A stretch of DNA of 64,000 nucleotides from Acidobacteriota bacterium (GTDB lineage: Bacteria; Acidobacteriota; Vicinamibacteria; Vicinamibacterales; 2-12-FULL-66-21), in NCBI GenBank assembly GCA_046726015.1, contig JBKOZS010000054.1:460-64459 (forward strand), given 5' to 3'. This document shows, piece by piece, positions 9,686 through 47,724 of this stretch. Positions within the stretch are counted from its first letter, which is position 1. The number at the start of each line of letters is the position of its first letter. Made by a program: the position numbers and the translations under genes. Below the pieces are notes generated by a model, which was given only the letters and a program-made list of their open reading frames with translations, ran no database searches and had not been told where the DNA came from.

Positions 9686-9688
9686 GAA

Positions 9689-33204: not shown

Positions 33205-33729
33205 ATGCAAGACGACGAACTGAACGATTCATCCGAACAGGCGGCGGCCGCAACCGAGAGCGCCCCCGGCGAGCCTGACCTCAACGTGGCGGAGCTCCAG
33301 CAACAGCGCGACCAGTTCTACGATCGCCTGCTGCGGAAAACTGCGGAGTTCGACAACTATCGCAAGCGCATCGAGCGCGAGCGCGTGCAGCAGGCCGAAG
33401 CGGCCGCCGCAGATCTCCTCGAAGAACTGCTCCCGCTCGTGGACGATCTCGAGCGCGCGCTCAGGGCTGACGCCGGCTCCGAGGGGGCCGACGCGTATCG
33501 ACGCGGCGTGGAGTTGATCCATCGCCAGCTGCTGGAGGTGCTGCGCAAGCGCGGCGTCCGTCCGATCGAATCACTCGGCGCTGATTTCGACCCGCACTTT
33601 CACCAGGCGGTCGCGCACGAGTCTGCCCAGGGACACCGCGAAGGTGAAGTGACCGAGGAATTCCGTCGGGGCTACATGCTGGGCGACCGGCTGCTGCGTC
33701 CCGCGATGGTGAAGGTGGCGAAAGGGTGA
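33205..33729 (+). CDS. grpE: nucleotide exchange factor GrpE
   Basis: 174 aa. Has ..FDNYRKRIERE.. and the C-terminal FDPHFHQAV..GYML.DRLLRPAMV block. Confidence 0.95.
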   Translation: MQDDELNDSSEQAAAATESAPGEPDLNVAELQQQRDQFYDRLLRKTAEFDNYRKRIERERVQQAEAAAADLLEELLPLVDDLERALRADAGSEGADAYRRGVELIHRQLLEVLRKRGVRPIESLGADFDPHFHQAVAHESAQGHREGEVTEEFRRGYMLGDRLLRPAMVKVAKG

Positions 33730-34871
33730 GCAAGCGCGACTATTACGAGGTGCTCGGCATCGGCCGGGACGCGACGGACCAGCAGATCAAGAGCGCCTAT
33801 CGGAAGCTCGCGCTCAAATACCATCCCGATCGCAATCCCGGTGATCACACCGCCGAGGAGCATTTCAAGGAAGCGGCGGAAGCGTACGCCGTCCTGGCGG
33901 ACGCGCAGAAACGCGAGCTGTACAACCGCTTCGGACATGCGGGGGTCAGCGGCGCCGGCGCGGGCGCGGGCGGGTTCGATCCAACGGTTTTCGCGGGCTT
34001 CGAAGACATCTTCGGCAGTCTCGGCGATCTCTTCGGGTTCGGCGACGTGTTCGGCGGGCGGCGGCGGCGTGGCGGCCCGCAGCGTGGCGCCGATCTCCGC
34101 TACGACCTCGAAATCTCATTCGAGGAATCGTTCGAAGGGGCCGAAACGGCAATTCAGATCCCGCGCGAAGAAACCTGCGAGACGTGCAAAGGCTCGGGCG
34201 CGGCCGCCGGCAGCATGGCGGAAGTCTGTAATCAGTGCCGCGGTTCAGGCCAGCTCCGCTTTCAGCAGGGATTCCTCACCGTCGCACGACCGTGCACGAA
34301 TTGCCGCGGCACGGGACGCGTCATCAGCAAGCCGTGCCAGGCGTGCCGTGGTGCGGGGCGCGTGGGGCGCGAGCGCAAGATCACGGTCAAGATTCCTCCC
34401 GGGATTGCGACGGGTCAGCGGCTGCGGCTCTACGGCGAGGGTGAACACGGATCGGCGGGCGGCCCCGCGGGCGATCTCTACGTCGTGGTTCACGTGCAGG
34501 AACACCCGTTCTTCCATCGCGAGGGAGACGATCTGTACTGCGAGATGCCGGTGACCTTCCCGACGCTCGCCCTTGGCGGCGATGTCCGCGTGCCGACGAT
34601 GAAATCGGAAGAAGAGATCAAGATCCCCGCCGGGACGCAGCCCGGCGCCCGCTTCAAGCTGCGCGGCAAGGGCATGCCGAACGTGTCAGGTCGCGGGCAC
34701 GGCGACCTGCACGTCATAATGCGCCCGACAGTGCCGAAGAAGCTGACGCGCGAGCAGAAGCACTTGCTCGAGGAACTGGCGAAGACGATGCCGCAGGAGA
34801 TCATCGATCCCGAGACGGCAGAATCGTCGGAGAAGCCGTTCTTCGAGAAGGTCAAGGACATCTTTGGCTGA
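33726..34871 (+). CDS. dnaJ: molecular chaperone DnaJ
   Basis: J domain (DYYEVLGI..YHPDRNPGD), G/F-rich region and four CxxCxGxG zinc-finger repeats. GTGA overlap with the grpE stop. Confidence 0.95.
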   Translation: MSKRDYYEVLGIGRDATDQQIKSAYRKLALKYHPDRNPGDHTAEEHFKEAAEAYAVLADAQKRELYNRFGHAGVSGAGAGAGGFDPTVFAGFEDIFGSLGDLFGFGDVFGGRRRRGGPQRGADLRYDLEISFEESFEGAETAIQIPREETCETCKGSGAAAGSMAEVCNQCRGSGQLRFQQGFLTVARPCTNCRGTGRVISKPCQACRGAGRVGRERKITVKIPPGIATGQRLRLYGEGEHGSAGGPAGDLYVVVHVQEHPFFHREGDDLYCEMPVTFPTLALGGDVRVPTMKSEEEIKIPAGTQPGARFKLRGKGMPNVSGRGHGDLHVIMRPTVPKKLTREQKHLLEELAKTMPQEIIDPETAESSEKPFFEKVKDIFG

Positions 34872-35706
34872 TGCCCCGGCCCTGGAGGTCGCGTTTCTCG
34901 CGGCGCCAGGTCCGGAGGCCTTTCTGCGCGAGCGCCTCTACGCGCTTCTGGACGACTTCAATCCGCTTGCCATTCACGAAGACGACAGCAGCGACACGTG
35001 GCGCGTGTTCTTCCGGTCGGCAGCCGAGCGCGATGCTGCCGCCGCGCATGTCACCGCAGCCGTCGCGCCACACCTGCTACGCATATCGGCTGTCGACGTT
35101 GCCGACGAAGACTGGGCACGGCGTTCCCAGCAAAACCTGACTGCAATTGAAGCCGACGGCCTGGTCGTCGCGCCCCCGTGGGACGTGCCGCGCGGTGCCT
35201 CGAAGCCGGTCATCATCATCGAGCCCTCAATGGGATTCGGCACCGGCCATCATGCCACCACGCGCCTGTGCCTCCGGCTCCTCCAGCAACTCGAACTGCG
35301 GGGCTCGCGCGTCGTCGACATCGGCACCGGCTCGGGCGTGCTTGCGCTCGCAGCCTGGAAACTCGGAGCGCGCGACGTGGTTGCGATCGACAACGATCCG
35401 GATGCGATCAACAACGCGCGCGACAACATTGCGCGGAACGGAGGCGCCGGTGCGATCGACATCATCTGCGACGATCTGAATTCGTTGAAGGTGGAGCCGG
35501 CAGATGTGGTGCTGGCTAATCTGACAGCCGCGGTGCTGGTCCGATTCGCACCGAGGCTGATGAAGCTCGCGGGTCCAAAGGGCTACCTGATTCTCAGCGG
35601 TTTTGCGCCCGATCATCTGACGGAGATTCAACCGGCGTTCGAGGCGACACAGGGGATCAAGGAACTCCACGAAGGCGAGTGGGCGGCAATCTGCCTCCGC
35701 AAATAG
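34864..35706 (+). CDS. prmA: ribosomal protein L11 methyltransferase
   Basis: 280 aa. Has IIIEPSMGFGTGHHATT and the VVDIGTGSGVLA SAM motif. TTG start overlapping the dnaJ end by 8 nt. Confidence 0.88.
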   Translation: MADAPALEVAFLAAPGPEAFLRERLYALLDDFNPLAIHEDDSSDTWRVFFRSAAERDAAAAHVTAAVAPHLLRISAVDVADEDWARRSQQNLTAIEADGLVVAPPWDVPRGASKPVIIIEPSMGFGTGHHATTRLCLRLLQQLELRGSRVVDIGTGSGVLALAAWKLGARDVVAIDNDPDAINNARDNIARNGGAGAIDIICDDLNSLKVEPADVVLANLTAAVLVRFAPRLMKLAGPKGYLILSGFAPDHLTEIQPAFEATQGIKELHEGEWAAICLRK

Positions 35707-35712
35707 GAGGCG

Positions 35713-35763
35713 AATGCCAAACTTTCGTGATTCGGCATTTGGCATTTGACATTCGACATTGAC
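35713..35763. repeat. hairpin (AATGCCAAA 35713-35721 / TTTGGCATT 35738-35746) merging into tandem heptamers TYGRCAT
   Basis: TTCGGCA TTTGGCA TTTGACA TTCGACA TTGAC, read directly in the spacer between convergent prmA and rsmE. Confidence 0.75.
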
Positions 35764-35798
35764 CCGGCGCCTCAGGCGATCAGCCGCGGCGCCTCTCT

Positions 35799-36539
35799 CT
35801 ACAGGTCCGACCACAGGAACTGCAGCACGCCAATCGCGACGATCGCGAGCGCGTCGGCGCGCAGCGTGCGGCGGCCGAGCGTAATCGGCACCCATCCCGC
35901 GCGCACGGCCGTCTCGATCTCTTCCGGCGCCCAGCCCCCTTCTGGTCCCACGAGCAGCGTTGATGAGGCCGGGCGTCGTCCCTGCAACGCCGCGACGGGA
36001 TGCCCTTCAACGCTGACGCTGGGTTCAACCAGCATCAACCGCATCTCGGCGTTGTCCTGGACGATCAATTCGTCGAACGGCGTGCCATTGCCAATCACCG
36101 GGAGAACGGCGCGCCGGCACTGTTTTGCCGACGCCACGGCAATGCGGCGCCAGCGATCGGCCGCCTGCCCTTCCGTGAGCGCTTTCATACGGACCGTGGT
36201 ATGCGCGGTGACGACCGGCTCGATTGCCGCCACGCCCATCATCGTGGCGTCGCGGACGACCTCTTCCATCTTCTCCCCTTTGAGTACCGCCTGCGCGAGC
36301 GTGAGCCGCACGACCGGCTCCGGCGCTGCGCTGATCTCTTCGAGAAGGTGCACGGAGGCCCCTTCACGGCTGACGCGCTCGATGCGCGCCCGGTACTCGC
36401 GGCCGTTGCCATCGAACACGGCAATCTCGTCGCCGAAGCGCAGCCGAAGTACGTTGGTGAGGTGATGCGTTTCCTCGGCAGAGAGCGACGCCGTGTTGGA
36501 AGCGGGATCGAGGTCGGTGGCCAGGAACCGCGGGAGCAT
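35799..36539 (-). CDS. rsmE: 16S rRNA (uracil1498-N3)-methyltransferase RsmE
   Basis: MLPRFLATDL.. start (ATG 36539; alternative ATG 36551). C-terminal LLVGPEGGWAPEEIE...LGRRTLRA block. The track ORF start at 36629 is an upstream extension. Confidence 0.85.
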   Translation of the reverse strand: MLPRFLATDLDPASNTASLSAEETHHLTNVLRLRFGDEIAVFDGNGREYRARIERVSREGASVHLLEEISAAPEPVVRLTLAQAVLKGEKMEEVVRDATMMGVAAIEPVVTAHTTVRMKALTEGQAADRWRRIAVASAKQCRRAVLPVIGNGTPFDELIVQDNAEMRLMLVEPSVSVEGHPVAALQGRRPASSTLLVGPEGGWAPEEIETAVRAGWVPITLGRRTLRADALAIVAIGVLQFLWSDL

Positions 36540-36549
36540 GGGGGTGGCC

Positions 36550-36555
36550 ATTATA
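36550..36555 (-). promoter_or_regulatory. candidate -10 box TATAAT, 10 nt upstream of rsmE ATG 36539
   Basis: Minus strand reads ctcTATAATggccacccccATG. No Shine-Dalgarno sequence lies in between. Confidence 0.4.
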
Positions 36556-36595
36556 GAGTGGGGCCAGAACTCCCGACGAGGGCGCAAGAATCCGC

Positions 36596-36601
36596 TATAC
36601 T
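36596..36601 (+). promoter_or_regulatory. candidate -10 box TATACT, 10 nt upstream of the kinase TTG start
   Basis: gcTATACTcaacgcacacTTG. It forms a compact divergent pair with the rsmE -10 box 40 bp away. Confidence 0.35.
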
Positions 36602-36611
36602 CAACGCACAC

Positions 36612-37598
36612 TTGCTCTTCAAGGGACAAACGCTAGGGAAGTACAAGATCATCGCGCCGCTCGGCAGCGGCGGGTTTGGTACTGTCTACCTTGCACAGGA
36701 CACCTGGATCGACAAGAAGGTTGCGATCAAGGTGCCGCACCGGCAGGGGCTCGACTTCGGTGAACTGCTTCGCGAGCCTCGCCTGCTGGCGTCCGTCAGT
36801 CATCCCAACATCGTCGCGATCACCACGGCGGAGAAGCAGGACAACGTCTTCTTCATCGTGATGGAGTACGTGCAGGGAGAAACGCTCGAGAACATCATTG
36901 CCCTGCGCGGCTCGCTCGAGCTGAACCGGGCGCTCGATTTCACCTGCCAGATCTGCAACGCGGTCGATCACGCGCACCGGCAGGGCGTCATCCATCGCGA
37001 CCTGCGTCCCGCGAACGTGCTCGTCACGGAACACGACATGCTGAAGGTTGCCGACTTCGGCACGTCGCGCTTCCTGGAAATCGCCGCGCACGGCACCACG
37101 GTGATCGGCAGTCCGCCCTACATGGCACCCGAACAGTTTCATGGCAAGGCGGTGTTCGCGTCGGACCTCTACTCGCTGGGCGTGACGATGTACCAGATGC
37201 TCACGGGGCTGCTGCCGTACGACACACCGGCGCCGGCGGACCTGGACAAGCTGATGTCAGGGGAGCTGGTCTCGCCGCCGCGGCTCAAGAATCCGTCGAT
37301 TCCCAAGCCAATCAGCGACATCGTCATGAAGGCGATGGCGCCGGACCCGTCGCAACGGTACCAGCGCGCGACCGACCTCATGGAAGACGTGCTCGCCGCG
37401 AGGAACGCGACACGAACGCCGCCCGCTGGCGCCCTGGCCCGCCCCGCCGCGGGCCCGCGCGCAGGACGCGACGATGCACAGAGCATTCAGAGCCGGTTGC
37501 GCGCGCGAGAGGCGCCCGCCGCCCGCTTCTGCTGGCACTGCCGCAAGCCGCTGCACGCGCGCACGAACCGCTGCCCCTTCTGCGGCGAGAAGCAGTAG
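36612..37598 (+). CDS. Ser/Thr protein kinase (canonical Hanks type) with C-terminal zinc-ribbon
   Basis: LGSGGFGTVY, VAIKVP, HRDLRPANVLV, DFGTSR and YMAPEQ are all present. C-terminal CWHCRKPL..CPFCG. The only upstream in-frame start not overlapping rsmE is TTG 36612. The track ORF from 36000 is an antisense extension over rsmE. Confidence 0.85.
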   Translation: MLFKGQTLGKYKIIAPLGSGGFGTVYLAQDTWIDKKVAIKVPHRQGLDFGELLREPRLLASVSHPNIVAITTAEKQDNVFFIVMEYVQGETLENIIALRGSLELNRALDFTCQICNAVDHAHRQGVIHRDLRPANVLVTEHDMLKVADFGTSRFLEIAAHGTTVIGSPPYMAPEQFHGKAVFASDLYSLGVTMYQMLTGLLPYDTPAPADLDKLMSGELVSPPRLKNPSIPKPISDIVMKAMAPDPSQRYQRATDLMEDVLAARNATRTPPAGALARPAAGPRAGRDDAQSIQSRLRAREAPAARFCWHCRKPLHARTNRCPFCGEKQ

Positions 37599-37630
37599 GT
37601 GACGCAGCTCGCACTACCACCGACTGTTTC

Positions 37631-37696
37631 GCGGAGAGGCCGGTTCGGAGAGGACGGCTAATTGTTTTTAAAACAAAATAGACCTGATCTCTCCGC
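37631..37696. terminator. inverted repeat GCGGAGAG (37631-37638) / CTCTCCGC (37689-37696) around an AT-rich near-palindrome TTGTTTTTAAAACAA; candidate bidirectional terminator
   Basis: Read directly in the 132-nt spacer between the convergent kinase gene and the giant gene. A further GAGAGG unit lies at 37647-37654. Confidence 0.5.
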
Positions 37697-37730
37697 GCTC
37701 ACCGTGGAAACAGGCGCTGCGATTCAACTC

Positions 37731-40700
37731 TTACTCCACTGGCTTGTTCATGTCTGCCTGGATCTCCGCCGCGCTCAGTGCGCGGTTGTAAATCCGGACG
37801 TCGTCGATCAGCCCGCGGAAGAAATCGCTGCCGTTGTTGGTTCCGCCAATCCGGAGCGGCCCCGTGCCCGTTGAGATCAACGCCGTCGCCGCGGTGTTGG
37901 TGACTTCGACACCGTTGACGAACAGGCGCAGCCTGGAGCGGTCGTAGGTCGCGGCCAGGTGCGTCCACGTGTTGCTCGGAATGGATGACGTCCCGGCCGC
38001 ACTGACTTGCGCGGTCGTACGGATCCACGCTGCCGGCACGTTGCCGTTCGACGAGCTGAACAGGGCGTACGAGAACCCGAAGCCTCTCTCCTTGTAAACG
38101 ATCGGCCTCACGTTGTTGCTGCTGGAGGACGGGCGGACCCACGCTTCGATCGTCATACCCGCCGTCAGATCCAACATTGCGTTGTCGGCGATCGTGACGA
38201 ACGCATTCCCCCCGAACGACAGGGCCGATCCTGTCCGACCGGCGGTCGACCACGTGGTGCGCGTTGTGACTCCCGTGTTGCCGGATCCCGACACGTCCAG
38301 GGCTTGCGTGCCGCTCCCTTCGTTGAAGTTGTAGGCGGCAACCAGGCCCGCTGCTGGCGGTTGCGCGTTCAGCACGTCGACCGTTACGCTCGCCTGCGAC
38401 TGATTGCCTGCCGCGTCGCGCGCGATCGCGGTCAACGTGTGCGGACCATCCGGCGCGCTCGTGCTGTCCCACGGTGCCGAATACGGACCGGCCGTCATCT
38501 CATCGCCGAGCGCGGTTCCGTCGACGCTGAACTGAACGCCAACCACACCGACGTTGTCGGTCGCCGTGGCGGTCATCGTCACTGAACCGCTGACGGTCGC
38601 GTCGTTTACGGGAGACGTGATGGCGACGACGGGCGGAGTAATATCCGGGATCACGCTCGAGACGGTGACCGTGATGGACGACTGCGCGTGGTTACCAGCC
38701 GCATCTCGCGCGATGACAGTCACGGTGTGCGGACCATTGGGCACTGCTGTCGAGTCCCACGTCGCCGCATACGGCGCCGTCACGATCTCGGCGCCAAGTG
38801 GCACATCGTCCACCTGGATCTGCACGCCAGCAACGCCCACCGCGTCTGTGGCACTGGCGGTGATCGAAACCTGTCCGGATACCGCCGATCCGTCCGCGGG
38901 CGACGTGATTGAGACGGTGGGTGCTGTCGTGTCCGGCACCACGTTCGCCACGGTGACACTGATGATCGACTCCGACTGGTTGCCGGCCGCATCTCTTGCG
39001 ATGGCGGCGAGTGTGTGCGCTCCCTCTGCCGCGACTGTGGTATCCCAGGTTGCGGTGTAGGGCGCCGTCGACTTCTCGGCGCCAAGTGCCACGCCGTCAA
39101 CCTGGAATTGCACGCCGACGACACCGACGTCGTCCGCCGCACTCGCGACGATCGCGACGGATCCCGACACGCTGGACTGATCCAGCGGCGCGGTAATGGC
39201 CACCGCCGGCGCCGTCGTGTCTCCGAGGACAACGACGGTCGCTTCGGGAGATGGGCCACTGACGTTGCCAGCGGCGTCCTGCGCCGTGATGACGTAGAAA
39301 TACGTGCCCGGGGCGACACCCGTGCTATTCAGCGACGTGAGCGCGGTCTGCGCGATCAGATTCGCCGCGGATGGCGCAAACCCGGGGATCGTCGATCGGT
39401 GCACGTTGTAGTTGGACACGCCAATGTCGTCAGTCGCCGGAGACCACGACAGCGACACGGTTCCGACACCACCGAGGCCTGCCAGGCTCGAAGGAGCCGA
39501 CGGCGGCGTGGTATCGCTCACCGCGGTCGGGAAATGCACGAATGGCGCGAACGACGGCACGCCGGCCGTGTTCACGATGAACAGCAGGTAATAACCCGGG
39601 GGCGCGAGGTTCGCATTGGCGGGGGCCTGGATCGTCAGGCTGCCGGCACCCGCGGTGAAGTTCAGGTTCAGGAAGCGCTGGTCCTGGTCGAAGCCGTGCG
39701 TCACCGCGCCCGGCCGAATCAGCGCCACCGAGGCGATCGAAGCGGCATCAGTCGTTTGCACCGTGAACGTCGAGCCGTACTGAATCAGATCGGGAGCGGC
39801 GGTGATTGTCGGCCGCGGTCCCTTGAAAAGATACGGTGGCGAGTAGAGTTCGGCGCGTGTCTGGTTGACGGCGGGGCCATCGTTTCCGCTGCCGGCAATC
39901 AGCACGCGCCCATCGGGAAGGAGCAGCGCCGTCGAGTGGTACAACCGCGCGAACGATGCGGGCGACAGTGATTTGAACGTCTCGGTCGCCGGCGACCAGA
40001 GCTCTGCGGTGAGGACCCCTTTGCTGACGTCGTACCCATCGAGGGCGGTGCCGCCGCCGGTGACGAGCACGTCGCCATCCGGCAGCAGCGTCATGTTGTG
40101 AAACGCGCGCGGGAACTTCATCGACGCGACCTGCCGCCATGTTGGCGACGGCTGGGTCATATCGATCACGTATCCGGTCGGCTGCGCGACGCCCGTGGTT
40201 CCGCTATCCGCGGCGGTTCCCGTCTTGAGCACCTTGCCCGGGCGGTACATGACGGCGCTGTGCCCGTCCTTCACCACGGGATCGACCATCGACCACGTAC
40301 CGGTCGTCATGTTCAGCGTGCGGGTCTCGTACGCGTCCTCGTTCGATCCCGCAGACAGGAGACGCCCATCCGGGAGCACGAACATGAATGGGTAGTAGTC
40401 GATGCCAAGGCGCGCGCTCGTCAGCTGCGTAAACCGTCTCGAGACCGGATCGAAGATCTCGGGCACGTCCGCCAGACAGGTGAGACAGCTCTGCGCGCCG
40501 GAGGTGACGAGCATGCGGCCGTCAGGCAGCGTCGTCACCGTCGGGTACCAGCGACGGAACGACATGTCAGGGAGCGCCGACCACGTCTGCGATACGGGGT
40601 CGAAGATGTTGGCGTTCGCGGCGCCAAGGCCCGCCGGGTCGTGACCGCCCGCCACGAGGATCCTGCCGTCAGGCAACTGCGCCTGCCCTGCGCAGAACAG

Positions 40701-41864
40701 GTTGTAGAACGGATTCGGGACTGGCGTGATCGTGCCGGTCGCCGGATCCCAGACACGTTCGGGAGCCGAAAACACGTACGAACCGGAGAACATCAGTACT
40801 TTGCCCGTCCGCAGCAGCACCATGTTCACGGCGACGGTACCGACATCGAATCCTGGGCCCCACTGTCCGACGACGTCCGGCGTGTTGCCGACGGACGTGC
40901 TCGTTGCCGTAAAGTCCACGCCGGTGACGCCAGCGTCGCTGATGGTCATCGCGCGCGACGTCGGCGTGAACGTGAAGCCAGACTTCGACGGCGTTACCAC
41001 GTAAGTGCCGTTCGCGAGCCCAGTCAATGAGTAGTTGCCGTTCGCGTCGGCGGTGATCGAACCGGTTGCAGCGCCGTTCAACGTCATCGTCGTACCGCTG
41101 CCGCTGCTCGACGGTGTAATCGTACCGCTCACGCTGAACGTGACCGGCGGCGTACCGCCGACGGGCGTGATCATGTCGGACTGGATCTCCGCTGCCGTCA
41201 GTGCACGGTTGTAGATCCTCACCTCGTCGATCGCACCAGAAAAGTACTCTCCCCAAACTGAGTTCCCGCCAATCCGCAATGGATCGAGCGACGTGGTGAT
41301 CGTGCCAGCGATTGGCGTGGACGCGACCTGCTGTCCGCCGACATACGTGCGCAGTGTGACGCCGTCGTAGGTCGTTGCTACATGAACCCAGGCGTTCGTG
41401 GGCAGGGCCGTGGAACCAGTGGCATCGGTATCACCGCTGTCCACGGAGCGACGGATGTACGCGGCCGCGCGACCGGTCGTGTCTCCGCCATAGAGCGCGT
41501 AGGCCAGGCCGCCGGGACGTTCCTTGAGGATCACCGTCCGCCAGTTCGTCACAGACGCGGCTCTGATCCAGGCCTCGAGCGTCATGCCGTTCGTCAGCGA
41601 GAGCGGCGGCGCGTGGTTCACCGTCACCCAGTCGCCGTTGCCATCAAACGACAGGGCGTCGCCGGACTTTCCGGTGGTCCAGGTCGCCCCGGTGAGCGTG
41701 CCGGTATGGCCGTTACCAGAGACGTCGGCTGTCGTCGCACCGCTTCCCTCGTTGAAGCCGTACGCTGCGACCAAGCCTGTTTGCGCTGCAACTGGCACGG
41801 AGAGCGCAAGGAAGCTTGTAGCGAGAACGATGCGAAACCCAAGGATCGACCGACGGCGGCCCAT
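37731..41864 (-). CDS. giant secreted multidomain protein: LamG-like, CarboxypepD_reg-like, galactose/glyoxal-oxidase-like (copper radical oxidase) beta-propeller plus E-set domain, FN3, 3 Ig-like repeats, LamG-like
   Basis: ATG 41864 gives MGRRRSILGFRIVLATSFLALSVPVAAQ (signal peptide). The track start is TTG 41885. Oxidase motifs NLFCAGQ..DGRILVAGG, RRWYPT, RLYHSTALLLPDGRV and AVTHGFDQDQR. LamG-like ends share ..VRIYNRAL(T/S)AAEIQ.DM. Confidence 0.85.
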   Translation of the reverse strand: MGRRRSILGFRIVLATSFLALSVPVAAQTGLVAAYGFNEGSGATTADVSGNGHTGTLTGATWTTGKSGDALSFDGNGDWVTVNHAPPLSLTNGMTLEAWIRAASVTNWRTVILKERPGGLAYALYGGDTTGRAAAYIRRSVDSGDTDATGSTALPTNAWVHVATTYDGVTLRTYVGGQQVASTPIAGTITTSLDPLRIGGNSVWGEYFSGAIDEVRIYNRALTAAEIQSDMITPVGGTPPVTFSVSGTITPSSSGSGTTMTLNGAATGSITADANGNYSLTGLANGTYVVTPSKSGFTFTPTSRAMTISDAGVTGVDFTATSTSVGNTPDVVGQWGPGFDVGTVAVNMVLLRTGKVLMFSGSYVFSAPERVWDPATGTITPVPNPFYNLFCAGQAQLPDGRILVAGGHDPAGLGAANANIFDPVSQTWSALPDMSFRRWYPTVTTLPDGRMLVTSGAQSCLTCLADVPEIFDPVSRRFTQLTSARLGIDYYPFMFVLPDGRLLSAGSNEDAYETRTLNMTTGTWSMVDPVVKDGHSAVMYRPGKVLKTGTAADSGTTGVAQPTGYVIDMTQPSPTWRQVASMKFPRAFHNMTLLPDGDVLVTGGGTALDGYDVSKGVLTAELWSPATETFKSLSPASFARLYHSTALLLPDGRVLIAGSGNDGPAVNQTRAELYSPPYLFKGPRPTITAAPDLIQYGSTFTVQTTDAASIASVALIRPGAVTHGFDQDQRFLNLNFTAGAGSLTIQAPANANLAPPGYYLLFIVNTAGVPSFAPFVHFPTAVSDTTPPSAPSSLAGLGGVGTVSLSWSPATDDIGVSNYNVHRSTIPGFAPSAANLIAQTALTSLNSTGVAPGTYFYVITAQDAAGNVSGPSPEATVVVLGDTTAPAVAITAPLDQSSVSGSVAIVASAADDVGVVGVQFQVDGVALGAEKSTAPYTATWDTTVAAEGAHTLAAIARDAAGNQSESIISVTVANVVPDTTAPTVSITSPADGSAVSGQVSITASATDAVGVAGVQIQVDDVPLGAEIVTAPYAATWDSTAVPNGPHTVTVIARDAAGNHAQSSITVTVSSVIPDITPPVVAITSPVNDATVSGSVTMTATATDNVGVVGVQFSVDGTALGDEMTAGPYSAPWDSTSAPDGPHTLTAIARDAAGNQSQASVTVDVLNAQPPAAGLVAAYNFNEGSGTQALDVSGSGNTGVTTRTTWSTAGRTGSALSFGGNAFVTIADNAMLDLTAGMTIEAWVRPSSSSNNVRPIVYKERGFGFSYALFSSSNGNVPAAWIRTTAQVSAAGTSSIPSNTWTHLAATYDRSRLRLFVNGVEVTNTAATALISTGTGPLRIGGTNNGSDFFRGLIDDVRIYNRALSAAEIQADMNKPVE
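38349..39221 (-). repeat. three tandem in-frame coding repeats of about 288-297 nt (Ig-like domains) inside the giant gene
   Basis: Protein repeats D(T/I)T(A/P)P.V.IT.P.....VSG.V.....A.D.VGV.GVQ..VD...LG.E....PY...WD.T....G.HT...IARDAAGN......V.V, three times (aa 889-1179 in track numbering). Confidence 0.85.
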
Positions 41865-41958
41865 ATCAGGCACCCCTGCCAGCAATGTGTTCGACGATGA
41901 TTGGACGCGTGTCTGCTCGCGAGATGACTTCCGTCACCACTCGAGCGGACGCATCTTG

Positions 41959-42999
41959 GTGCGGACCGTGAGGCTGGTGGCCGCCACAGCAGTTTGTGCA
42001 AGCCTTGCTCCAGTTGTGTCGGCACACATCAAGCCGGCGGACGTCACGTATTTGAAAGATGTCGCGCCGATTCTCTCGAAGCGGTGCGCAGGCTGCCACG
42101 CGTCCGGGGGTTCGGCACCCGTCCTGGACTCGTACGAGCACGCGCGTGCCTGGGCGCGCGGGATCAAGGAGGAAGTGCTGCAGCAGCGCATGCCGCCCTG
42201 GTCGGCGGCGTCCGGGCTCGGAGACTTCAGCAACGATCCGCGGCCGACGCCCACCGAAATCGACATCCTCGTGGCGTGGGCAGACGGTGGAACGCCGCAA
42301 GGATCTATCGAGTCGACGACGACAACGGGCGATGGGGCCGAAAGTACTTCAGCCGTTGTGGTGTCATTGCCGCGAGCGCATCCATCGCGCGTCGCGATTG
42401 AACGACTGCGTATACCGCTCGATGATCCAACCAGGGCAATGTGGGTCGCGGGATGGGAATACCGTCCTGGGGATTCGCGCGCGATCGAACAGGCTGTGTT
42501 CTTTGCTGATGATGTGCGAATTGGATCGTGGGTGGCGCCGGACTCGAAGGTCACCTTTCCCAAAGGAGTCGCGATCGCCGTCAGGAACGGAGCGACGATC
42601 ACCGCCGAACTGCACTATCGCAAGTCGAGCGACGTGGAGATCGAGGCGGGCGCGTTGCTGCTGTATCCAGGAGATGCGGGAGTCGAGCCGCGTCATCGCG
42701 CGTTCGCGTGCGGCACCACGGTCCTGCGGCAGGACATGAGGGCGTTGACGGTGACGCCGTCAGCGGCCGAAGCGGGCGCGTTCGTGGAAGTGATCGCGCG
42801 GCGCCCGGACAACAGCGTCGAGCCGCTGGTGGCGCTGGCGCGTTACCTGCCGGCGTATCCCGCGACGTACCGCTTCCGCACGCCAATCGCGCTGCCTCGC
42901 GGAACGATCATCGACGTCCGGTCGTCCGCGCGGGAGTGCGCCGCCCGAATCGATCTCATCGCGTCGCGCCGGGGTCGCGCCGTTTCGCTTCAACCGTAA
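41959..42999 (+). CDS. secreted CxxCH-motif (cytochrome c-like) protein with beta-rich C-terminal domain; function unknown
   Basis: GTG 41959 gives (M)RTVRLVAATAVCASLAPVVSAH (signal peptide). DVAPILSKRCAGCH (CAGCH at 42085-42099) ...QQRMPPW...EIDILVAWADGG resembles the N-terminal module of proteins often annotated as cytochrome c or copper monooxygenase-like. The track ORF from 41524 is an antisense extension over the giant gene. Confidence 0.65.
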   Translation: MRTVRLVAATAVCASLAPVVSAHIKPADVTYLKDVAPILSKRCAGCHASGGSAPVLDSYEHARAWARGIKEEVLQQRMPPWSAASGLGDFSNDPRPTPTEIDILVAWADGGTPQGSIESTTTTGDGAESTSAVVVSLPRAHPSRVAIERLRIPLDDPTRAMWVAGWEYRPGDSRAIEQAVFFADDVRIGSWVAPDSKVTFPKGVAIAVRNGATITAELHYRKSSDVEIEAGALLLYPGDAGVEPRHRAFACGTTVLRQDMRALTVTPSAAEAGAFVEVIARRPDNSVEPLVALARYLPAYPATYRFRTPIALPRGTIIDVRSSARECAARIDLIASRRGRAVSLQP

Positions 43000-43897
43000 A
43001 CGGTGCCGTCAGCACCTGGCCGCGACGCTGGAACTGCACCCAGGCCCGATACGGGCCGGCGCGCGGGAAGAGCACCTGGAACACGATACGCGGTCCCGCC
43101 TCCGTCGTGAGCCCGGCAACCGGATGACTGTGCGTCACCGACTCGAGATCGCCGCTCGCGAGCAGCAGGTGTGCGGGGGCGCCGAGAAACGGCTCGAGAT
43201 CCTCGATCGGCTGGCCGCCCTTTTCGTCGACGAGCTCGAACGTCATCAGCTGTTCGCGTCCGGCAACCGGCTCAGGAACGATGGTCTGCACGCGGACCCC
43301 GCCGACGATCTTGTCGGCAACATCGACTGCCTGCGCCGCACTCGGCAGCACGCGTCCGCGGAACCCAGACGTCACGATCGACTTCTGCAGCAGTTGCGGC
43401 GCGCCGCCGGCAGGAACGACGTCCGCGATCAGACGATACGCGCCCGCGGTGGGCAGTCGCACGGACTGCTCGAAGCTGCCGTCCTGCGTGCGCGCGGGAT
43501 GCAGGTGCGCGAAGAACTCGAGATCGTGGCTGAGGACGAACAGGTGCAGCAGACGCTCGTGCGTCTCCTGGAATTCCTGAACGGTCGCACCGGTCTGCGG
43601 GTTGCGCACGAATAAACGAATCAGCGCGTCGCGTCCCGCAACCGGCGCGCTCGGTATGACCTGGATATCAAGGTGATACGCGTCGGATGCAGTCGAGGGC
43701 GCCGGCACGAGCGCCATGCCGCATCGCGGGCACCTGTCCCCTTTCGAGCCACGCACGTCGGCGTGCATCGGGCACCAGTAGTCAGCCGGCGAGGCCTGGG
43801 TCTGTCGAGTGGCCTCGACATCGCGCGGCACGATAGCGGTCGCGGCCGCGCCGAACCCGAACGAACACACGACGGCCAGGACTCCCAGGGAACGCAT
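42956..43897 (-). CDS. periplasmic heavy-metal-binding-domain (HMBD) protein with two beta-sandwich repeats
   Basis: 313 aa. Signal peptide, then YWCPMHADVRGSKGDRCPRCGMAL (HMBD motif). Two repeats contain HLFVLSHDLEFFAHLHP and HLLLASGDLESVTHSHP. The 3' end overlaps the convergent CxxCH gene by 44 nt. Confidence 0.8.
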   Translation of the reverse strand: MRSLGVLAVVCSFGFGAAATAIVPRDVEATRQTQASPADYWCPMHADVRGSKGDRCPRCGMALVPAPSTASDAYHLDIQVIPSAPVAGRDALIRLFVRNPQTGATVQEFQETHERLLHLFVLSHDLEFFAHLHPARTQDGSFEQSVRLPTAGAYRLIADVVPAGGAPQLLQKSIVTSGFRGRVLPSAAQAVDVADKIVGGVRVQTIVPEPVAGREQLMTFELVDEKGGQPIEDLEPFLGAPAHLLLASGDLESVTHSHPVAGLTTEAGPRIVFQVLFPRAGPYRAWVQFQRRGQVLTAPFTVEAKRRDPGATR

Positions 43898-43927
43898 GCA
43901 CGGCAGGGTACCACGACACGCAACGAT

Positions 43928-43953
43928 GGGCTCGAGGCTCAGGGCTCAGAGCC
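43928..43953. repeat. GGCTCRG heptamer units (GGGCTCGAGGCTCAGGGCTCAGAGCC)
   Basis: Read directly. Same unit family as 19129-19245 and 59679-59723. Confidence 0.7.
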
Positions 43954-44040
43954 GGGACACTCACACTTAATCCCACAAACGGGACGAAGCGTGACTGTCC
44001 CCCTTTCGGATCCCCCGCATCCGCACCGTCCGTGACCAGA

Positions 44041-44077
44041 GAGACTCGGGATTCGGGACTCAGGACTCCTCGGGACC
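44041..44077. repeat. GAYTCRG heptamer units (GAGACTCGG GATTCGG GACTCAG GACTCCT CGGGACC)
   Basis: Read directly in the HMBD/ilvE divergent spacer. Confidence 0.7.
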
Positions 44078-44189
44078 ACCCCACGCTTGGCACTGTGCGG
44101 AAACGCCGGGGGTGGTTAAGATGGAGAAGGCTCGAACTATGCGACCGAGCCCGCGTGTGGGGCGAAGCCCCAGTGATAAGGAGCGTTAG

Positions 44190-45170
44190 ATGGCGTTTCC
44201 CGGCACCGGCAAAATCTGGATGAACGGCTCGCTCGTGGACTGGGCCGACGCAAAGATCCATATCGCCTCGCACGTGGTGCACTACGGCAGCGGCGTGTTC
44301 GAAGGGGCGCGGTGCTACGAGACGCCGCGCGGCACGGCGTGCTTCCGCCTCGATGCGCACCTGCGGCGGCTGTTCGACTCGGCCAAGATCTATCGGATGG
44401 AACCTACGCTCACCTATGCGGAACTGCACGACGCGGTCCTGACCACGATCCGGGCAAACGACTTCAAAGCGTGCTATCTGCGTCCCCTCGTGTATCGCGG
44501 CTACCACACGCTCGGCGTGAACCCGTTCCCCTGCCCTGTCGACACGGCGATTCTCGCGTGGGAATGGGGGGCGTATCTCGGCCAGGACGCGCTCACGAAC
44601 GGCGTCGACGTCTGCGTGAGCTCGTGGGCGCGCGCCGCTCCCAACACCTTCCCGACACTGGCGAAGACAACGGCCAACTACGCCAACTCGCAGTTGATCA
44701 AGATGGAGGCGATCGCCGAGGGCTACAGCGAGGGCATCGCGCTCGACAGCGGCGGCTATCTCAGCGAAGGCAGCGGCCAGAATCTGTTCATCGTGCGCGA
44801 CAACACGCTGTACACGCCGCCGCTCACGGCGTCGATCCTTCCGGGTATCACGCGGAATTCCGTCATCACGCTCGCGAAGGACCTCGGGTTCCGCGTGCGT
44901 GAAGAAATGCTGCCGCGCGAACTGCTCTACATCGCTGACGAGGCATTCTTCGTCGGAACCGCCGTCGAAATCACGCCGATTCGCTCGGTCGACAAGATTA
45001 CGGTTGGGAACGGCCGCCGCGGCCCGATGACCGAATCGATCCAGCAGGCCTTCTTCGACGTGATCAACGGCGAGGTCGCCGACCGGCATGGATGGCTGGA
45101 GTACGTCTACCCTGGCGAGCCCCGCCAGGCCGCCACGCCGGTCGCCAGGACAACGGCTGCCGAGAAATAG
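44190..45170 (+). CDS. ilvE: branched-chain amino acid aminotransferase (class IV)
   Basis: 326 aa. Has ..HYGSGVFEGARCY.., the ..GYSEGIALD.. and LYTPP...ILPGITR blocks. AAGGAG lies 6 nt upstream of the ATG. Confidence 0.95.
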   Translation: MAFPGTGKIWMNGSLVDWADAKIHIASHVVHYGSGVFEGARCYETPRGTACFRLDAHLRRLFDSAKIYRMEPTLTYAELHDAVLTTIRANDFKACYLRPLVYRGYHTLGVNPFPCPVDTAILAWEWGAYLGQDALTNGVDVCVSSWARAAPNTFPTLAKTTANYANSQLIKMEAIAEGYSEGIALDSGGYLSEGSGQNLFIVRDNTLYTPPLTASILPGITRNSVITLAKDLGFRVREEMLPRELLYIADEAFFVGTAVEITPIRSVDKITVGNGRRGPMTESIQQAFFDVINGEVADRHGWLEYVYPGEPRQAATPVARTTAAEK

Positions 45171-45213
45171 CCCTCACCTGCTACACTAGGGCACCCCAGC
45201 CCACGGCCCCACA

Positions 45214-45248
45214 GGACACGGCAACGCGGGAGACCGCGTTCCGTGTGT
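45214..45248 (+). terminator. GC-rich hairpin downstream of ilvE (candidate terminator or attenuator)
   Basis: GGACACGGCAACGCGG-gaga-CCGCGTTCCGTGTGTC, a stem of about 13 bp with one bulge. It is followed by TCTTCGGTATT, which is only a weak U-tract. Confidence 0.45.
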
Positions 45249-45265
45249 CTTCGGTATTGACATTT

Positions 45266-46429
45266 ATGCACATCAACGATCTCTTGAAGACCGCTGTGGC
45301 CAGTGGCGCGTCGGACCTCCATCTCAAGGTCGGCAGCTACCCGATGATGCGCGTGAACGGCACGCTCGTGGTGGCGTCCGAGGAAAAGCGCCTGGATCGC
45401 CCCGATACCGAGGCGATGGCGCAGGGCATTTTCACTCCGGAACACCTCGAGAAGTTCCGCCGCAACCAGGACGTCGACCTGGCCTATAGCGTCGCCGGGC
45501 TGGGCCGCTTCCGCTGCAACGTCTTCCAGCAGCGCGGCACCGTCGGCCTCGTCCTGCGCGTGATCCCCACACGCATCAAGTCAGTCGACGAACTCGGCCT
45601 GCCCCCCGTGCTCAAGAAGATCGCGCAGGAGGAACGCGGCCTGGTGCTCGTCACCGGAACGACGGGCAGCGGCAAGTCGACGACACTGGCGGCGCTCATC
45701 GATTACATCAACTCGACGCGGTCCGCGCACATCATGACCGTCGAAGATCCCATCGAGTACCTGCATCGCGACCACATGTCGCTCGTCAACCAGCGCGAGA
45801 TCTCGGTGGACGCGCAGTCGTTCGCCCACGCGCTCCGCGCCGCGCTGCGGCAGGACCCCGATGTCATCCTGGTCGGCGAAATGCGCGACTTCGAGACAAT
45901 CGAAACGGCGTTGCACGCGGCCGAGACCGGACATCTCGTGCTCTCGACGCTGCACACGCTCGATGCCACTGAAACGATCAACCGCATCATTGCGGTGTTC
46001 CCGCCGCACCAGCAGCGGCAGGTCCGCATCCAGCTGGCGAGCGTGTTGAAGGCCGTCATCTCGCAGCGCCTCATGCCGCGCGCCGACGCCCTCGGCCGCG
46101 CCGCGGCGGTGGAAGTGATGGTCACCACCGCCTTCATCAGAGACTGCATCGTCGACAAGGACAGGACGTCGCAGATCTACGGCGCGATCACCGCGGGTGG
46201 ATCGCAATACGGCATGCAGACGTTCGATCAATCGATCTTCGGCCTGTATCAGGCGGGCTACGTCACGCTCGAAGAGGCGCTGCGCTGGGCGTCGAACGTG
46301 GACGATTTCAAGCTGAAGGTCCAGGGCATCTCGTCGTCGACAGAGATGCGCCAGGCACAGGCGGCGGCTGCCGCGCAGGCCGCCCGGAGCGGCGGAGGCA
46401 TGCCGGAGATTACGCGCTTCGGCGGTTAG
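45266..46429 (+). CDS. pilT: type IV pilus twitching-motility ATPase PilT
   Basis: MHINDLLKTAVASGASDLHLKVGSYPMMRVNG.., Walker A GTTGSGKST and the PilT-type ..AHALRAALRQDPDVILVGEMRD.. block. The track ORF from 45092 is an upstream extension overlapping ilvE. Confidence 0.9.
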   Translation: MHINDLLKTAVASGASDLHLKVGSYPMMRVNGTLVVASEEKRLDRPDTEAMAQGIFTPEHLEKFRRNQDVDLAYSVAGLGRFRCNVFQQRGTVGLVLRVIPTRIKSVDELGLPPVLKKIAQEERGLVLVTGTTGSGKSTTLAALIDYINSTRSAHIMTVEDPIEYLHRDHMSLVNQREISVDAQSFAHALRAALRQDPDVILVGEMRDFETIETALHAAETGHLVLSTLHTLDATETINRIIAVFPPHQQRQVRIQLASVLKAVISQRLMPRADALGRAAAVEVMVTTAFIRDCIVDKDRTSQIYGAITAGGSQYGMQTFDQSIFGLYQAGYVTLEEALRWASNVDDFKLKVQGISSSTEMRQAQAAAAAQAARSGGGMPEITRFGG

Positions 46430-46716
46430 TCTTCCTCCTTGCAAACTGATATTCAGCTCGAGAGTACGTAAGTACCGGGCGTTCGGCCTAGCCGTTGAGG
46501 AACGAGCATTGCTGCGATCGATGCCCGACCAGTCGTCGCTGCGGATTCAGTGCGCTTGAGGCGTACTGAATGACGACGACCGGGCGCAGGAGTTACTCGC
46601 TCCCACCCGGCAGCATCCACAACACCATGGGTTTCGCGAGCGTGCCGGCATGCGCGCGTACTCATGCGTATCGACGTGTCGCATCTTTTTGGATCGACAC
46701 TCTGGAGCCTCAACCT

Positions 46717-47724
46717 ATGCGTATTCTCACGCGCATGGCGGCTGCATTCAGCCTTGCCATGGCCCTCGGGTTCTTGTCTAAGCCTGTTACACCACTGGTT
46801 GCGCCAGTCCAAGCGGCCACGTCCGCTGGATGCGAAGGCGGTGGATTCTCAATCGTGTTGCCTGGAGGGACGACGCTCGCCGGCGACGTCGATACGAGCG
46901 TCCCGGCGTCGAGCCTCGGTTCGAGCTTCCTCGTCAGAGGCAAGTACGTCGAGTTCAATGTCGTCTCGGCAACGTTTGGCATCACCAACTACACGTTCAC
47001 CGGCGCCCCAAATCCGCTGGACATGACCGGTGGTGTGCGCACGCCCGTATTTGCGCGCAAGACGCCAGACCATCGCGGTCTGTCGTTGACGAATGCGATG
47101 ACCGCGGAATTGAAGGACGGAGATGTCGTGATCGAGAGAAGCGGACCCGGATTGGACATGAAGATCCAGGCCAAGGATTGTGCGAACGGCGGCCTCTTCC
47201 AGATGGAACCCCAGCGCGCTGATGGAACCCAGACTGACATCACGCACGTGCTCGCGACAGCAACTGGGGCCGAGGGCGCCAACCTGACGGTGTTCTATTT
47301 CGACAATCCGAACTTCCGCGCACGCGAAGGCGACGTGGTCCCCTTCAAGGACACGACGATCGTAGTACCGTCACGGATCAACTTCGCGAACGACTTCTCG
47401 CCGAAGTTCGTGGGTCGGGACAGTCCGCAAGTTGCGACGCGCATCGCGCAAGGCTGCCCGAACCAGATTCAAAAGCGCGACGGCACGTTCGTGACCGTCG
47501 ATCATTGCGGCGGCGTGTCCGTGTGGCGTGTCGCCAGCGGCGGCCGGATGGGCGCAGTGTTTGGTGAAGATGCGACCGAGGTTTCCCCACCCGCGACGGT
47601 GTGCACGCAGAACTGCCAGGCGCAAAACCGCGTCAGAGGGCAGGCCGTCGTCCTTGGATTTCCGTTCCCCGTGCAAGATAACGTTCGTCTGAAGCCACGT
47701 TTCCCCGCCGGCTTCCAGCCGTAA
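46717..47724 (+). CDS. secreted hypothetical protein (no family recognised)
   Basis: ATG 46717 is preceded by GGAG. Signal peptide MRILTRMAAAFSLAMALGFLSKPVTPLVAPVQA. 7 Cys in the mature part. The coding-like GC3-rich frame is continuous to 47724. Confidence 0.7.
   Translation: MRILTRMAAAFSLAMALGFLSKPVTPLVAPVQAATSAGCEGGGFSIVLPGGTTLAGDVDTSVPASSLGSSFLVRGKYVEFNVVSATFGITNYTFTGAPNPLDMTGGVRTPVFARKTPDHRGLSLTNAMTAELKDGDVVIERSGPGLDMKIQAKDCANGGLFQMEPQRADGTQTDITHVLATATGAEGANLTVFYFDNPNFRAREGDVVPFKDTTIVVPSRINFANDFSPKFVGRDSPQVATRIAQGCPNQIQKRDGTFVTVDHCGGVSVWRVASGGRMGAVFGEDATEVSPPATVCTQNCQAQNRVRGQAVVLGFPFPVQDNVRLKPRFPAGFQP

Follow-up and report, generated by a model that had tools for sequence, protein, structure and literature searches.

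A stretch of 64,000 nucleotides from an Acidobacteriota genome (contig JBKOZS010000054.1 of assembly GCA_046726015.1; the whole stretch is called the window here, and coordinates without a locus label are positions in it) contains three neighbouring genes, designated A, B and C, that encode a copper-radical oxidase (CRO) and two smaller exported proteins. Protein A is predicted from its sequence to be a catalytically competent CRO, i.e. an alcohol or aldehyde oxidase making H2O2. Protein B is a pseudoenzyme on the fold of peptidylglycine monooxygenase (PHM) that carries a putative haem c domain, and protein C combines a heavy-metal-binding domain (HMBD) with two Ig-like domains bearing His clusters. 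B and C form a unit of their own, and among relatives this unit is found beside either a CRO or an intact cytochrome c-PHM-like monooxygenase. It seems to be a generic accessory that can join one or the other of two unrelated families of extracytoplasmic copper enzymes, and the window holds the CRO-linked form. Our favoured reading, held with about as much belief as doubt, is that B and C are a copper-delivery or copper-conditioning and redox maturation pair for the oxidase, which would make the locus a three-gene extracytoplasmic copper module. The genes and the regions where they meet are as follows.

37731..41885 (-): gene A, secreted multidomain CRO, 1384 aa from TTG; alternative ATG at 41864
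41959..42999 (+): gene B, predicted exported monohaem cytochrome c with a degenerate double β-sandwich like that of PHM and dopamine β-hydroxylase (DBH), 346 aa
42956..43897 (-): gene C, exported HMBD protein with two Ig-like His-cluster domains, 313 aa
41886..41958 (no strand): A-B divergent intergenic region, containing the palindrome CTCGCGAG at 41916-41923
42956..42999 (no strand): B-C convergent 3′-end overlap of 44 nt, from the coordinates of the open reading frames (ORFs)

An earlier, sequence-only reading of this DNA had proposed that the two small proteins deliver or redox-cycle copper, or accept electrons, for the oxidase. Its ORFs and motifs were all found at the residue or coordinate it gave, as judged from the ORF list and a codon check; these include CAGCH (42085-42099) and AIEQAVFF in B, and YWCPMH..CPRCGM, HERLLH..FAHLHP and THSHP in C. 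The supporting homology goes far past what chance would give and does not depend on single short motifs. Its observations are therefore confirmed, while its interpretation is supported in part and needs three corrections.

Conservation of the locus and its copper enzymes

Conservation was surveyed at the species level, with one genome per species, around the best 80 of 215 relatives of C. L numbers denote loci in relatives. The 80 loci span Vicinamibacterales, Bryobacterales, Pyrinomonadaceae, Acidobacteriaceae and two Acidimicrobiia. Features were counted from tblastn matches; greedy ORF calling is noisy in high-GC loci, where antisense ORFs are sometimes picked.

The A-B-C arrangement is present in at least 12 distinct loci, in which the flanks differ and identity falls to 40% for the CRO and 45% for C. 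The three genes are adjacent in L001, L004, L005, L010/L016, L011, L012, L014, L015, L018 and L019, and further in L020, L022, L025, L029 and L094. Every long contig with a C of at least ~47% identity, searched from B or from C, holds C, a convergent B and a divergent LamG-CRO. Conservation of the three-gene neighbourhood, one of the tests that the sequence-only reading had set for its proposal, is thus what was found: it is kept in relatives with unrelated flanks. The closest relatives, L005 and L014, share the whole neighbourhood with the window.

Near C, among the best 80 of its 215 relatives, a CRO was found in 10 loci, a B-like cytochrome gene within 2.5 kb in 43, an intact cytochrome c-PHM-like gene in 27, and a CRO together with an intact PHM-like gene in 0. 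Counts by identity tier, taken from loci where the sequence extends 6 kb or more to either side of C, are given below.

C at least 47% identical to that of the window: CRO 5/6, B-like 6/6, intact PHM-like 0/6, none of these 0/6
C 40-46% identical: CRO 1/23, B-like 19/23, intact PHM-like 17/23, none 4/23
C below 40% identical: CRO 0/24, B-like 6/24, intact PHM-like 4/24, none 18/24

The idea that the two small proteins are specific to the oxidase has to be given up, as the pair is commoner with intact cytochrome c-PHM-like monooxygenases (27/80) than with CROs (10/80). The occurrence of B-C beside intact PHM-like enzymes in place of a CRO points to a generic accessory for periplasmic or secreted copper enzymes.

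Some relatives depart from these arrangements. At L017 (8972-11184), the next gene after a C homologue of 54% identity, on the same strand, encodes a small GlxA-like CRO that has no LamG domain; no B lies between the two, so that C and a CRO are here combined in an independent way. At L026 (8051-14316), a C homologue with an N-terminal extension of ~190 aa (glyoxalase/VOC-like in protein P0153) is accompanied by a short B-like protein of 236 aa, by one or two intact cytochrome c-fused PHM-like monooxygenases (with the HH, H, HxH and M ligands) and by a divergent M28/PA-domain peptidase. Similar loci are L023, L024, L027, L028, L030, L032, L043-L045, L055 and L058, and loci of the L026 type have the look of a bacterial PHM-like enzyme system not yet characterised.

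In several relatives the triad has giant secreted DUF4082/Big_5/DMFA2_C proteins at its side (L001 6079-13359; L010 1-9965 and 16827-20186), and ORFs of this kind, 2177-2489 aa long, lie upstream of C in L019 and L022; the window has none. In several long-read metagenome-assembled genomes the CRO gene is split into 2-5 ORFs (L010/L016 12112-16583, L011 12233-16034, L015 and L094 5722-10489), and in L094 B is split too. These splits are probably frameshift assembly errors, with pseudogenisation as the alternative.

B and C as one unit

In ~40 species-level loci, C and a B-like gene stand tail to tail, with their 3′ ends at −34 to +44 nt from each other (overlap or abutment). The two proteins are also found as a single chain: the 149 best C-domain representatives include at least 10 in which a B part is followed by a C part (P0156, P0175, P0178, P0185, P0200, P0208, P0241, P0247, P0255 and P0273), and PHM ligands are missing in every one. 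Five of these (P0156, P0175, P0178, P0200 and P0247) contain a full two-sandwich B, and the other fusions a short one-sandwich B. At L031, a further B-C fusion (9137-10810) has an intact cytochrome c-PHM-like gene on one side and a hexahaem cytochrome on the other. Because of the gene fusions and the conserved tail-to-tail overlap, we regard B and C as one unit.

The overlapping C-terminal tails of the two proteins are poorly conserved in sequence though the overlap itself is kept (in the window, L001, L004, L005, L010, L014, L022 and ~35 more loci), and the overlap may reflect shared termination or antisense interference. The hexahaem c-type cytochrome of L031 (Cytochrom_c3_2 / Paired_CXXCH) is encoded directly 3′ of the fusion at 10807-11799; in L033, a hexahaem cytochrome (a 367-aa ORF) is encoded downstream of C. 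Their position next to B-C or C hints at an electron supply chain.

Protein B, a putative haem domain on a degenerate PHM fold

Protein B consists of two parts.

42025..42312 (+): putative haem c domain, with His23 at 42025-42027, CAGCH at 42085-42099 and MPPW at 42190-42201
42346..42975 (+): PHM-like domains with both copper sites lost, from alignments with proteins P0027-P0029 and the intact L026 enzymes

The haem domain gave weak matches to Cytochrome_CBB3 in Pfam (E 8e-4, 20.1 bits, below the cut-off of 27) and to PccH in the PDB (4rlr, E 4e-3). In the B family alignment, C43, C46 and H47 of the CxxCH motif and M78-P-P-W81 are invariant. The remainder of the protein gave no Pfam match to Cu2_monooxygen or Cu2_monoox_C at E<=10, and was identified by structure: an AlphaFold2 model built from 22 sequences (pLDDT 83) has, as its top 29 Foldseek matches, only PHM or DBH structures (rat PHM 1yjl/1phm, E 1.5e-8, probability 1.0; human DBH 4zel).

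None of the PHM copper ligands has been kept in B. AIEQAV stands in place of the HH motif (residue 175) and TPSAAEAG in place of HxH (residue 266), the chain stops before the Met-ligand motif, and the single leftover His, that of LHY, is not conserved in the B family. Close relatives likewise have EQ, TQ or RA for HH and SAA or similar for HxH, and the Met motif is missing. In contrast, the distant homologues P0027-P0029 and the 451-461-aa L026 proteins keep VHH, HY(H), PHxH and EEM. The intact relatives match Cu2_monoox_C (PF03712) weakly, and the intact L026 enzymes align with B of the window in tblastn at 25-26% identity (E 1e-22) over 385 residues. The suspected loss of the His-His pair, which the sequence-only reading had raised, was thus borne out and extends to the other copper ligands; Foldseek on the model shows this, and so does a comparison with aligned relatives in which HH, H, HxH and M are all present. 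B is a pseudoenzyme on the PHM fold. It keeps family-specific conserved residues, including a Cys pair.

A second feature separates the degenerate proteins from the intact enzymes. A His directly after the signal-peptide-like segment is present in 36 of 40 degenerate B-like proteins versus 2 of 28 intact enzymes (His23 in B of the window), within the post-signal consensus A|H-x-[KR]-x-[ST]-x-V-T-[WY] and 19-20 residues before CxxCH. If, as we infer from the sequence, signal peptidase cuts after Ala or Gly, His23 would become residue 1. A His in this position is the arrangement of copper 'histidine brace' proteins, and His23 is therefore a possible N-terminal histidine copper site.

The first search for B homologues returned 29 proteins (its word index missed others), and the context of C shows that B-like genes are far commoner. 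Membership of the DyP-type peroxidases, as in DtpA, was considered for B and rejected, as no Pfam, NCBIfam or PDB match supports it.

Protein C, an HMBD with two Ig-like His-cluster domains

Protein C carries a signal peptide, followed by three domains.

43700..43780 (-): HMBD (C42, M44, H45, C56, C59, M61); PF19335, E 7.5e-11, 42.2 versus 23.6 bits
43364..43684 (-): Ig-like His-cluster (Ig-His) domain 1 (H113, H118, H131, H133), His residues invariant or nearly so
42983..43330 (-): Ig-His domain 2 (H243, H256, H258), a repeat of domain 1 with conserved His residues

The six HMBD residues listed are invariant in the family alignment, and the domain matches the N-terminal domain of the Legionella Cu-ATPase (8ovl, E 1.7e-6; 3rfu). 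The two Ig-His domains are internal repeats (BLASTP E 1e-8, 32% identity), and their seven His residues, H113 to H258, vary little or not at all in 35 close homologues and also in 150 and 51 distant ones. The AlphaFold2 model (pLDDT 88) shows two Ig/FnIII-like sandwiches; searched as a whole, with the two domains together, it retrieved generic Ig/FnIII tandems only in Foldseek, at low TM-scores. The β-sandwich domains have no Pfam match at E<=10 and none in NCBIfam or the PDB, where a profile search finds the ATPase HMBD only. Pfam, the alignment and the internal-repeat BLASTP agree with the earlier description of C as an HMBD protein with two His-bearing β-sandwich repeats.

An exhaustive search with the Ig-His tandem alone gave 4,589 representative clusters at E<=1e-3. 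Among the 51 longest top matches, the N-terminal addition is an HMBD in 38 and YtkA in 9; other fusion partners are a Cu P-type ATPase with HMA, CusF, cupredoxin, YHS, TRASH and cytochrome c. This overwhelmingly copper-related spectrum is the main argument that the Ig-His domain handles copper, and it makes C a probable copper protein by association.

A literature match of the HMBD to APE1/PCC1 proved irrelevant to C. Neither B nor C has a Pfam or NCBIfam match that would place it in Sco/SenC, PCuAC/ECuC, CopC or CusF.

The copper-radical oxidase

Protein A begins with a signal-peptide-like N-terminus, read from the sequence as MGRRRSILGFRIVLATSFLALSVPVAAQ, and its catalytic core is embedded in accessory domains (residue numbers from the TTG start).

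41163..41762 (-): N-terminal LamG-type (Laminin_G_3) lectin-like domain, ~42-241; PDB 4qvs matches residues 42-236
40905..41135 (-): CarboxypepD_reg-like Ig domain, 251-327; PF13620, E 1.5e-5, 25.7 bits, below the cut-off of 32.3
39816..40886 (-): kelch β-propeller catalytic domain, ~334-690; Glyoxal_oxid_N, Kelch_6, GlxA and galactose oxidase matches
40692-40694, 40545-40550, 39936-39941 and 39696-39698 (-): copper-site codons of C398, W446/Y447, Y649/H650 and H730, respectively; codons checked
39534..39815 (-): galactose-oxidase-like E-set domain, 691-784, carrying H730; PF09118 GO-like_E_set, E 1.1e-27
39240..39506 (-): FnIII-like domain, 794-882; PDB 1k85, chitinase A1 FnIII, E 1.4e-5
38427..39218 (-): three bacterial Ig-like repeats (Big_7), ~890-1153; PF17957, three stretches, E 5.8e-48
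37758..38216 (-): C-terminal LamG-type (Laminin_G_3) domain, 1224-1376; PF13385 best stretch, PDB 5hon/5ho0 arabinanase LamG-like module

In Pfam, the two Laminin_G_3 domains score E 2.6e-66, Kelch_6 E 4.9e-18, and Glyoxal_oxid_N E 9.3e-11 (41.9 bits, above the cut-off of 37.5). Searched against the PDB with phmmer, residues 334-786 match GlxA (4unm, E 6e-60) and galactose oxidase (1gof, E 8e-47), as well as fungal alcohol oxidases, which places the core in the galactose oxidase / glyoxal oxidase / GlxA superfamily (AA5-like in CAZy). C398, W446/Y447, Y649/H650 and H730 align with positions 91, 258/259, 471/472 and 559 of the GlxA chain. With an offset of +30, set by W288/Y289 (PMC11611005) and by C121 (the C121G variant, PMC4736821), they correspond to GlxA C121, W288/Y289, Y501/H502 and H589. 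Neither the five copper-site residues nor W446 varies among 12 triad-linked CROs (40-89% identity). GlxA and galactose oxidase are reported to have identical first-sphere ligands (PMC11611005), and since A aligns with GlxA, its ligands should also correspond to Y495, H496, H581 and the other ligands of galactose oxidase. The proposal of an oxidase with a complete copper site thus stands on the GlxA alignment and the invariance in relatives, with the match to galactose oxidase following from the published statement.

The architecture described earlier, in which two LamG domains, a CarboxypepD_reg-like domain, an FN3 domain and three Ig-like repeats surround the oxidase core, was recovered by Pfam and PDB matches, with CarboxypepD_reg below its gathering score. 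The earlier reading did not recognise it from characterised bacterial enzymes such as GlxA. More than 7,700 homologues of the catalytic core score at E<=1e-10, and many of these carry Laminin_G_3 and Big_7; their annotation does not go beyond 'LamG-like jellyroll fold domain-containing protein' or 'DUF1929 domain-containing protein'. With thousands of uncharacterised environmental homologues, many similarly decorated, the architecture is not rare, so A by itself belongs to a known type. The LamG and Ig/FnIII domains probably hold the enzyme on a polymeric or cell-surface glycan substrate.

A loop of A after the cross-linked Tyr contains a CxxC pair, C467-C470 ('SCLTC', ~40476-40487). The pair is kept in CROs of at least 69% identity, appears as CxxxxC in L018/L019, and is absent in L012/L029. 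We take this loop to be equivalent to the W290 region of galactose oxidase, and the stacking Trp of A is presumably of the GlxA type, not the W290 type.

A is not a GlxA orthologue: it reaches 264.7 bits with NCBIfam NF052501 against a cut-off of 800, and it lacks the inserted domain 2, as GlxA chain ~108-233 has no counterpart and residues 415-421 of A are contiguous. Export of A by the Tat pathway was likewise discarded, as the RRR of the signal peptide is not conserved in L010. No cslA-type glycan synthase is found among the neighbours of A.

Copper conditioning and delivery, and its alternatives

The cofactor of CROs arises by reaction of copper and O2 in the apo-protein, and galactose oxidase is matured by Cu(I) in seconds and by Cu(II) in hours (PMC11611005). 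To become active, CROs also have to undergo a one-electron oxidation, which in fungi is the task of a peroxidase partner (PMC12951238, PMC9770985). GlxA maturation in Streptomyces depends on two chaperones, Sco and ECuC, and on a haem protein, DtpA, which has been proposed to change the oxidation state of copper before transfer and to remove H2O2 (PMC4736821). By analogy, the module in the window would have the same cast with unrelated actors: an oxidase, a copper binder with soft and hard ligands, and a one-electron haem protein.

Our favoured reading takes as its basis the established domain identities, the ligand conservation in A, the loss of the PHM sites in B, the B-C unit and its linkage to CROs and PHM-like enzymes. 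C would take up copper, with its His clusters offering hard ligands for Cu(II) and the Cys/Met/His site of its HMBD soft ligands for Cu(I). B would provide a one-electron haem c relay and possibly a copper site of its own at the predicted N-terminal His. Copper set to the right oxidation state would be passed to the apo-oxidase, where copper and O2 would build the Tyr-Cys cofactor; the haem of B could also perform the one-electron oxidation of the resting enzyme to the active radical form. A wider proposal, which we offer tentatively and would sooner expect to fail than to hold in full, is that B-C represents an extracytoplasmic copper metallochaperone of a class so far unrecognised, one that has its own redox centre built in. 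Here, a pseudoenzyme descended from cytochrome c-PHM-like monooxygenases would have lost its catalytic copper sites and gained a His-brace-like N-terminal site beside the haem, and, working with or fused to an HMBD/His-cluster protein, would convert copper and deliver it to CROs and PHM-like monooxygenases.

Several points weigh against copper conditioning and delivery by B-C. In 36 of the 80 surveyed loci, C has no CRO, B-like or PHM-like gene nearby. Around CROs of 54-55% identity on a betaproteobacterial and another contig, neither B nor C lies in the flank covered, and the CROs of other phyla without B-C indicate that the pair is not required by CROs in general. Being divergent and convergent, the three genes form separate transcription units; their co-expression is not guaranteed, and the overlapping 3′ ends of B and C could mean mutual interference. 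The His clusters of C could be sites for a metal other than copper, or could bind no metal at all. The potential of a His/Met cytochrome c is usually too low to oxidise a galactose-oxidase-type Tyr-Cys site. Lastly, the occupancy by metal and haem, the direction of electron flow, the maturation role and the client specificity are read from genomic context.

Instead of maturing the oxidase, B could be its catalytic redox partner, with C as a copper relay: an electron acceptor leading to the respiratory chain in a dehydrogenase mode, a re-oxidiser of the semi-reduced enzyme, or a means of H2O2 disposal. We think this unlikely, even though it accommodates the strict conservation of the haem c domain, the hexahaem cytochromes behind the B-C fusion or C in L031 and L033, and the intact relatives, which are cytochrome c-monooxygenase fusions whose haem presumably feeds electrons to copper. 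The dedicated peroxidase partner of fungal CROs and the H2O2-removing side of DtpA offer precedents. However, CROs react with O2 themselves and can do without an acceptor, nothing in B resembles a peroxidase (it has one CxxCH and a conserved Met), and the same pair serves mechanistic opposites, an oxidase on the one hand and electron-consuming monooxygenases on the other. The HMBD of C and its trafficking fusion partners (Cu-ATPase, CusF, HMA, YHS) moreover indicate metal handling, not electron transfer. Somewhat less probable still is a role of B-C in general periplasmic copper homeostasis or detoxification, by sequestration or cuprous/cupric conversion, where copper regulation brings the pair together with copper enzymes and no hand-off takes place. 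The 36 of 80 loci in which C has no neighbouring copper enzyme would then be explained, as would the large size of the C domain family (4,589 clusters) and its fusions to export- or resistance-type modules such as Cu-ATPase and CusF. Set against this, no efflux pump, CopA, CusCBA or multicopper oxidase gene lies beside the triad in the window or its relatives, and B is a degenerate paralogue of one of the client enzymes. The closest relatives of C are nearly always beside a CRO and the next tier beside a PHM-like enzyme, never both, which fits a client-specific partnership.

We consider it improbable that B is a pseudoenzyme for substrate binding or targeting, in which the dead PHM fold presents a peptide or glycan to the oxidase or anchors the complex, with C being incidental. 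The fold has been retained at high predicted confidence despite the loss of its ligands, and conserved residues including the Cys pair remain, but the invariant haem motif, the post-signal His and the obligatory pairing or fusion with an HMBD protein would be left unexplained, and short one-sandwich B-like forms still pair with C. That the adjacency is merely inherited synteny without functional meaning is hardly credible: L005 and L014 do share their entire neighbourhood with the window, yet the triad is kept among wholly different flanks, down to 40% identity for the CRO and 45% for C, and B-C fusions exist.

Locus layout and flanking genes

In the ORF listing, A and C span 37731-41885 (-) and 42956-43897 (-), and B lies within an ORF of 41524-42999 (+). 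For A, the ATG at 41864, seven codons in, is as plausible a start as the TTG. The ORF from 41524 is over-extended for B; the first start preceding a signal-peptide-like segment is TTG 41956 / GTG 41959, from which the N-terminal segment reads VRTVRLVAATAVCASLAPVVSA, followed by His (…|H). The A-B spacing is consequently 70 nt (from TTG 41956) or 73 nt (from GTG 41959) to the TTG start of A, or ~91-94 nt to ATG 41864.

The palindrome CTCGCGAG in the A-B gap is perfect and lies in a conserved block; it is shared by the close relatives L005 and L014 only and is uninformative so far. No other regulatory motif was found in the gap, and an Rfam scan of 33000-47000 gave no RNA element. The GC content is ~65% and even across the window, so there is no sign of a foreign island. 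Flanking genes are of the housekeeping kind: DnaJ, PrmA, RsmE, a Ser/Thr kinase, a branched-chain aminotransferase and a PilT-like ATPase (from the ORFs and from Pfam of the syntenic L005). The Ser/Thr protein kinase, directly downstream of the 3′ end of A (~36600-37598, +), ends in a CxxC...CxxC zinc-ribbon tail; its synteny extends to L005 and not to more distant triad loci.

Novelty and significance

As a system, a CRO assisted by a chaperone and by a haem maturation factor is of a known type; here two of the three parts, B and C, come from undescribed families. Neither this acidobacterial module nor cytochrome c-PHM-like pseudoenzymes nor the Ig-His domain turned up in the full-text literature, subscription journals aside.

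Loading CROs with copper, building their Tyr-Cys cofactor and switching them on form a bottleneck for understanding their biology and for their use as biocatalysts. One bacterial pathway is known, that of Streptomyces GlxA with Sco, ECuC and DtpA, and the locus points to an independent second solution, from undescribed families, that is widespread in soil Acidobacteriota. Co-expression of B and C may be key to producing active enzymes from the large, untapped pool of environmental bacterial CROs. The pair also flags a bacterial family of cytochrome c-fused PHM-like monooxygenases and a copper-associated Ig-His family that is absent from Pfam, and B is a clean example of an enzyme fold reused as an accessory factor.

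Comparison with known systems

The closest counterpart is GlxA of Streptomyces lividans (4unm, PMC4736821). Like A, it is an extracytoplasmic bacterial CRO with the same first-sphere ligands and an RWYP-type Trp by the cross-linked Tyr, and it is matured with copper chaperones and a haem protein thought to adjust the oxidation state of copper. Oxidase and chaperone genes co-occur in Frankia and Burkholderia genomes (PMC4736821). Unlike A, GlxA has an inserted domain 2 and a membrane anchor, while A has LamG, Big_7 and FnIII modules. The helpers are non-homologous: C consists of HMBD and Ig-His domains and is neither Sco nor ECuC, and DtpA is a DyP peroxidase whereas B has the features of a c-type cytochrome joined to a degenerate PHM fold.

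Fungal CROs of family AA5 (galactose oxidase 1gof and the alcohol oxidases) share the propeller and E-set core with A. They use carbohydrate-binding modules for targeting and a co-secreted haem protein, the tandem peroxidase partner, that activates the oxidase (PMC9770985, PMC12951238). The system in the window differs in being bacterial, in having a predicted monohaem cytochrome c rather than a peroxidase as partner, and in its additional partner, which is predicted to bind copper.

Protein B has the same two-sandwich fold as PHM (1phm) and DBH (4zel), and its distant bacterial relatives keep the HH/H and HxH/M ligands of these enzymes. In contrast, B itself has lost all copper ligands of both sites, ends before the Met and is fused to a haem c domain. 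The HMBD of C is the same small Cys/Met/His domain as that of P1B-type copper ATPases (N-terminus of Legionella CopA, 8ovl/3rfu). There it belongs to a membrane pump, whereas in C a signal peptide precedes it for export and two Ig-like His-cluster domains come after it.

CCS, the chaperone of Cu,Zn-superoxide dismutase, joins a metal-binding domain to a client-homologous domain that has lost its catalytic metal site. B-C, and above all the single-chain fusions, would by analogy follow the same logic toward PHM-like enzymes. The two are unrelated in sequence, the enzyme-like domain of B-C is PHM-like although the client in the window is a CRO, and B-C would contain a haem. If the proposed role is true, B-C would be a bacterial, haem-wired counterpart of the CCS-SOD1 principle.

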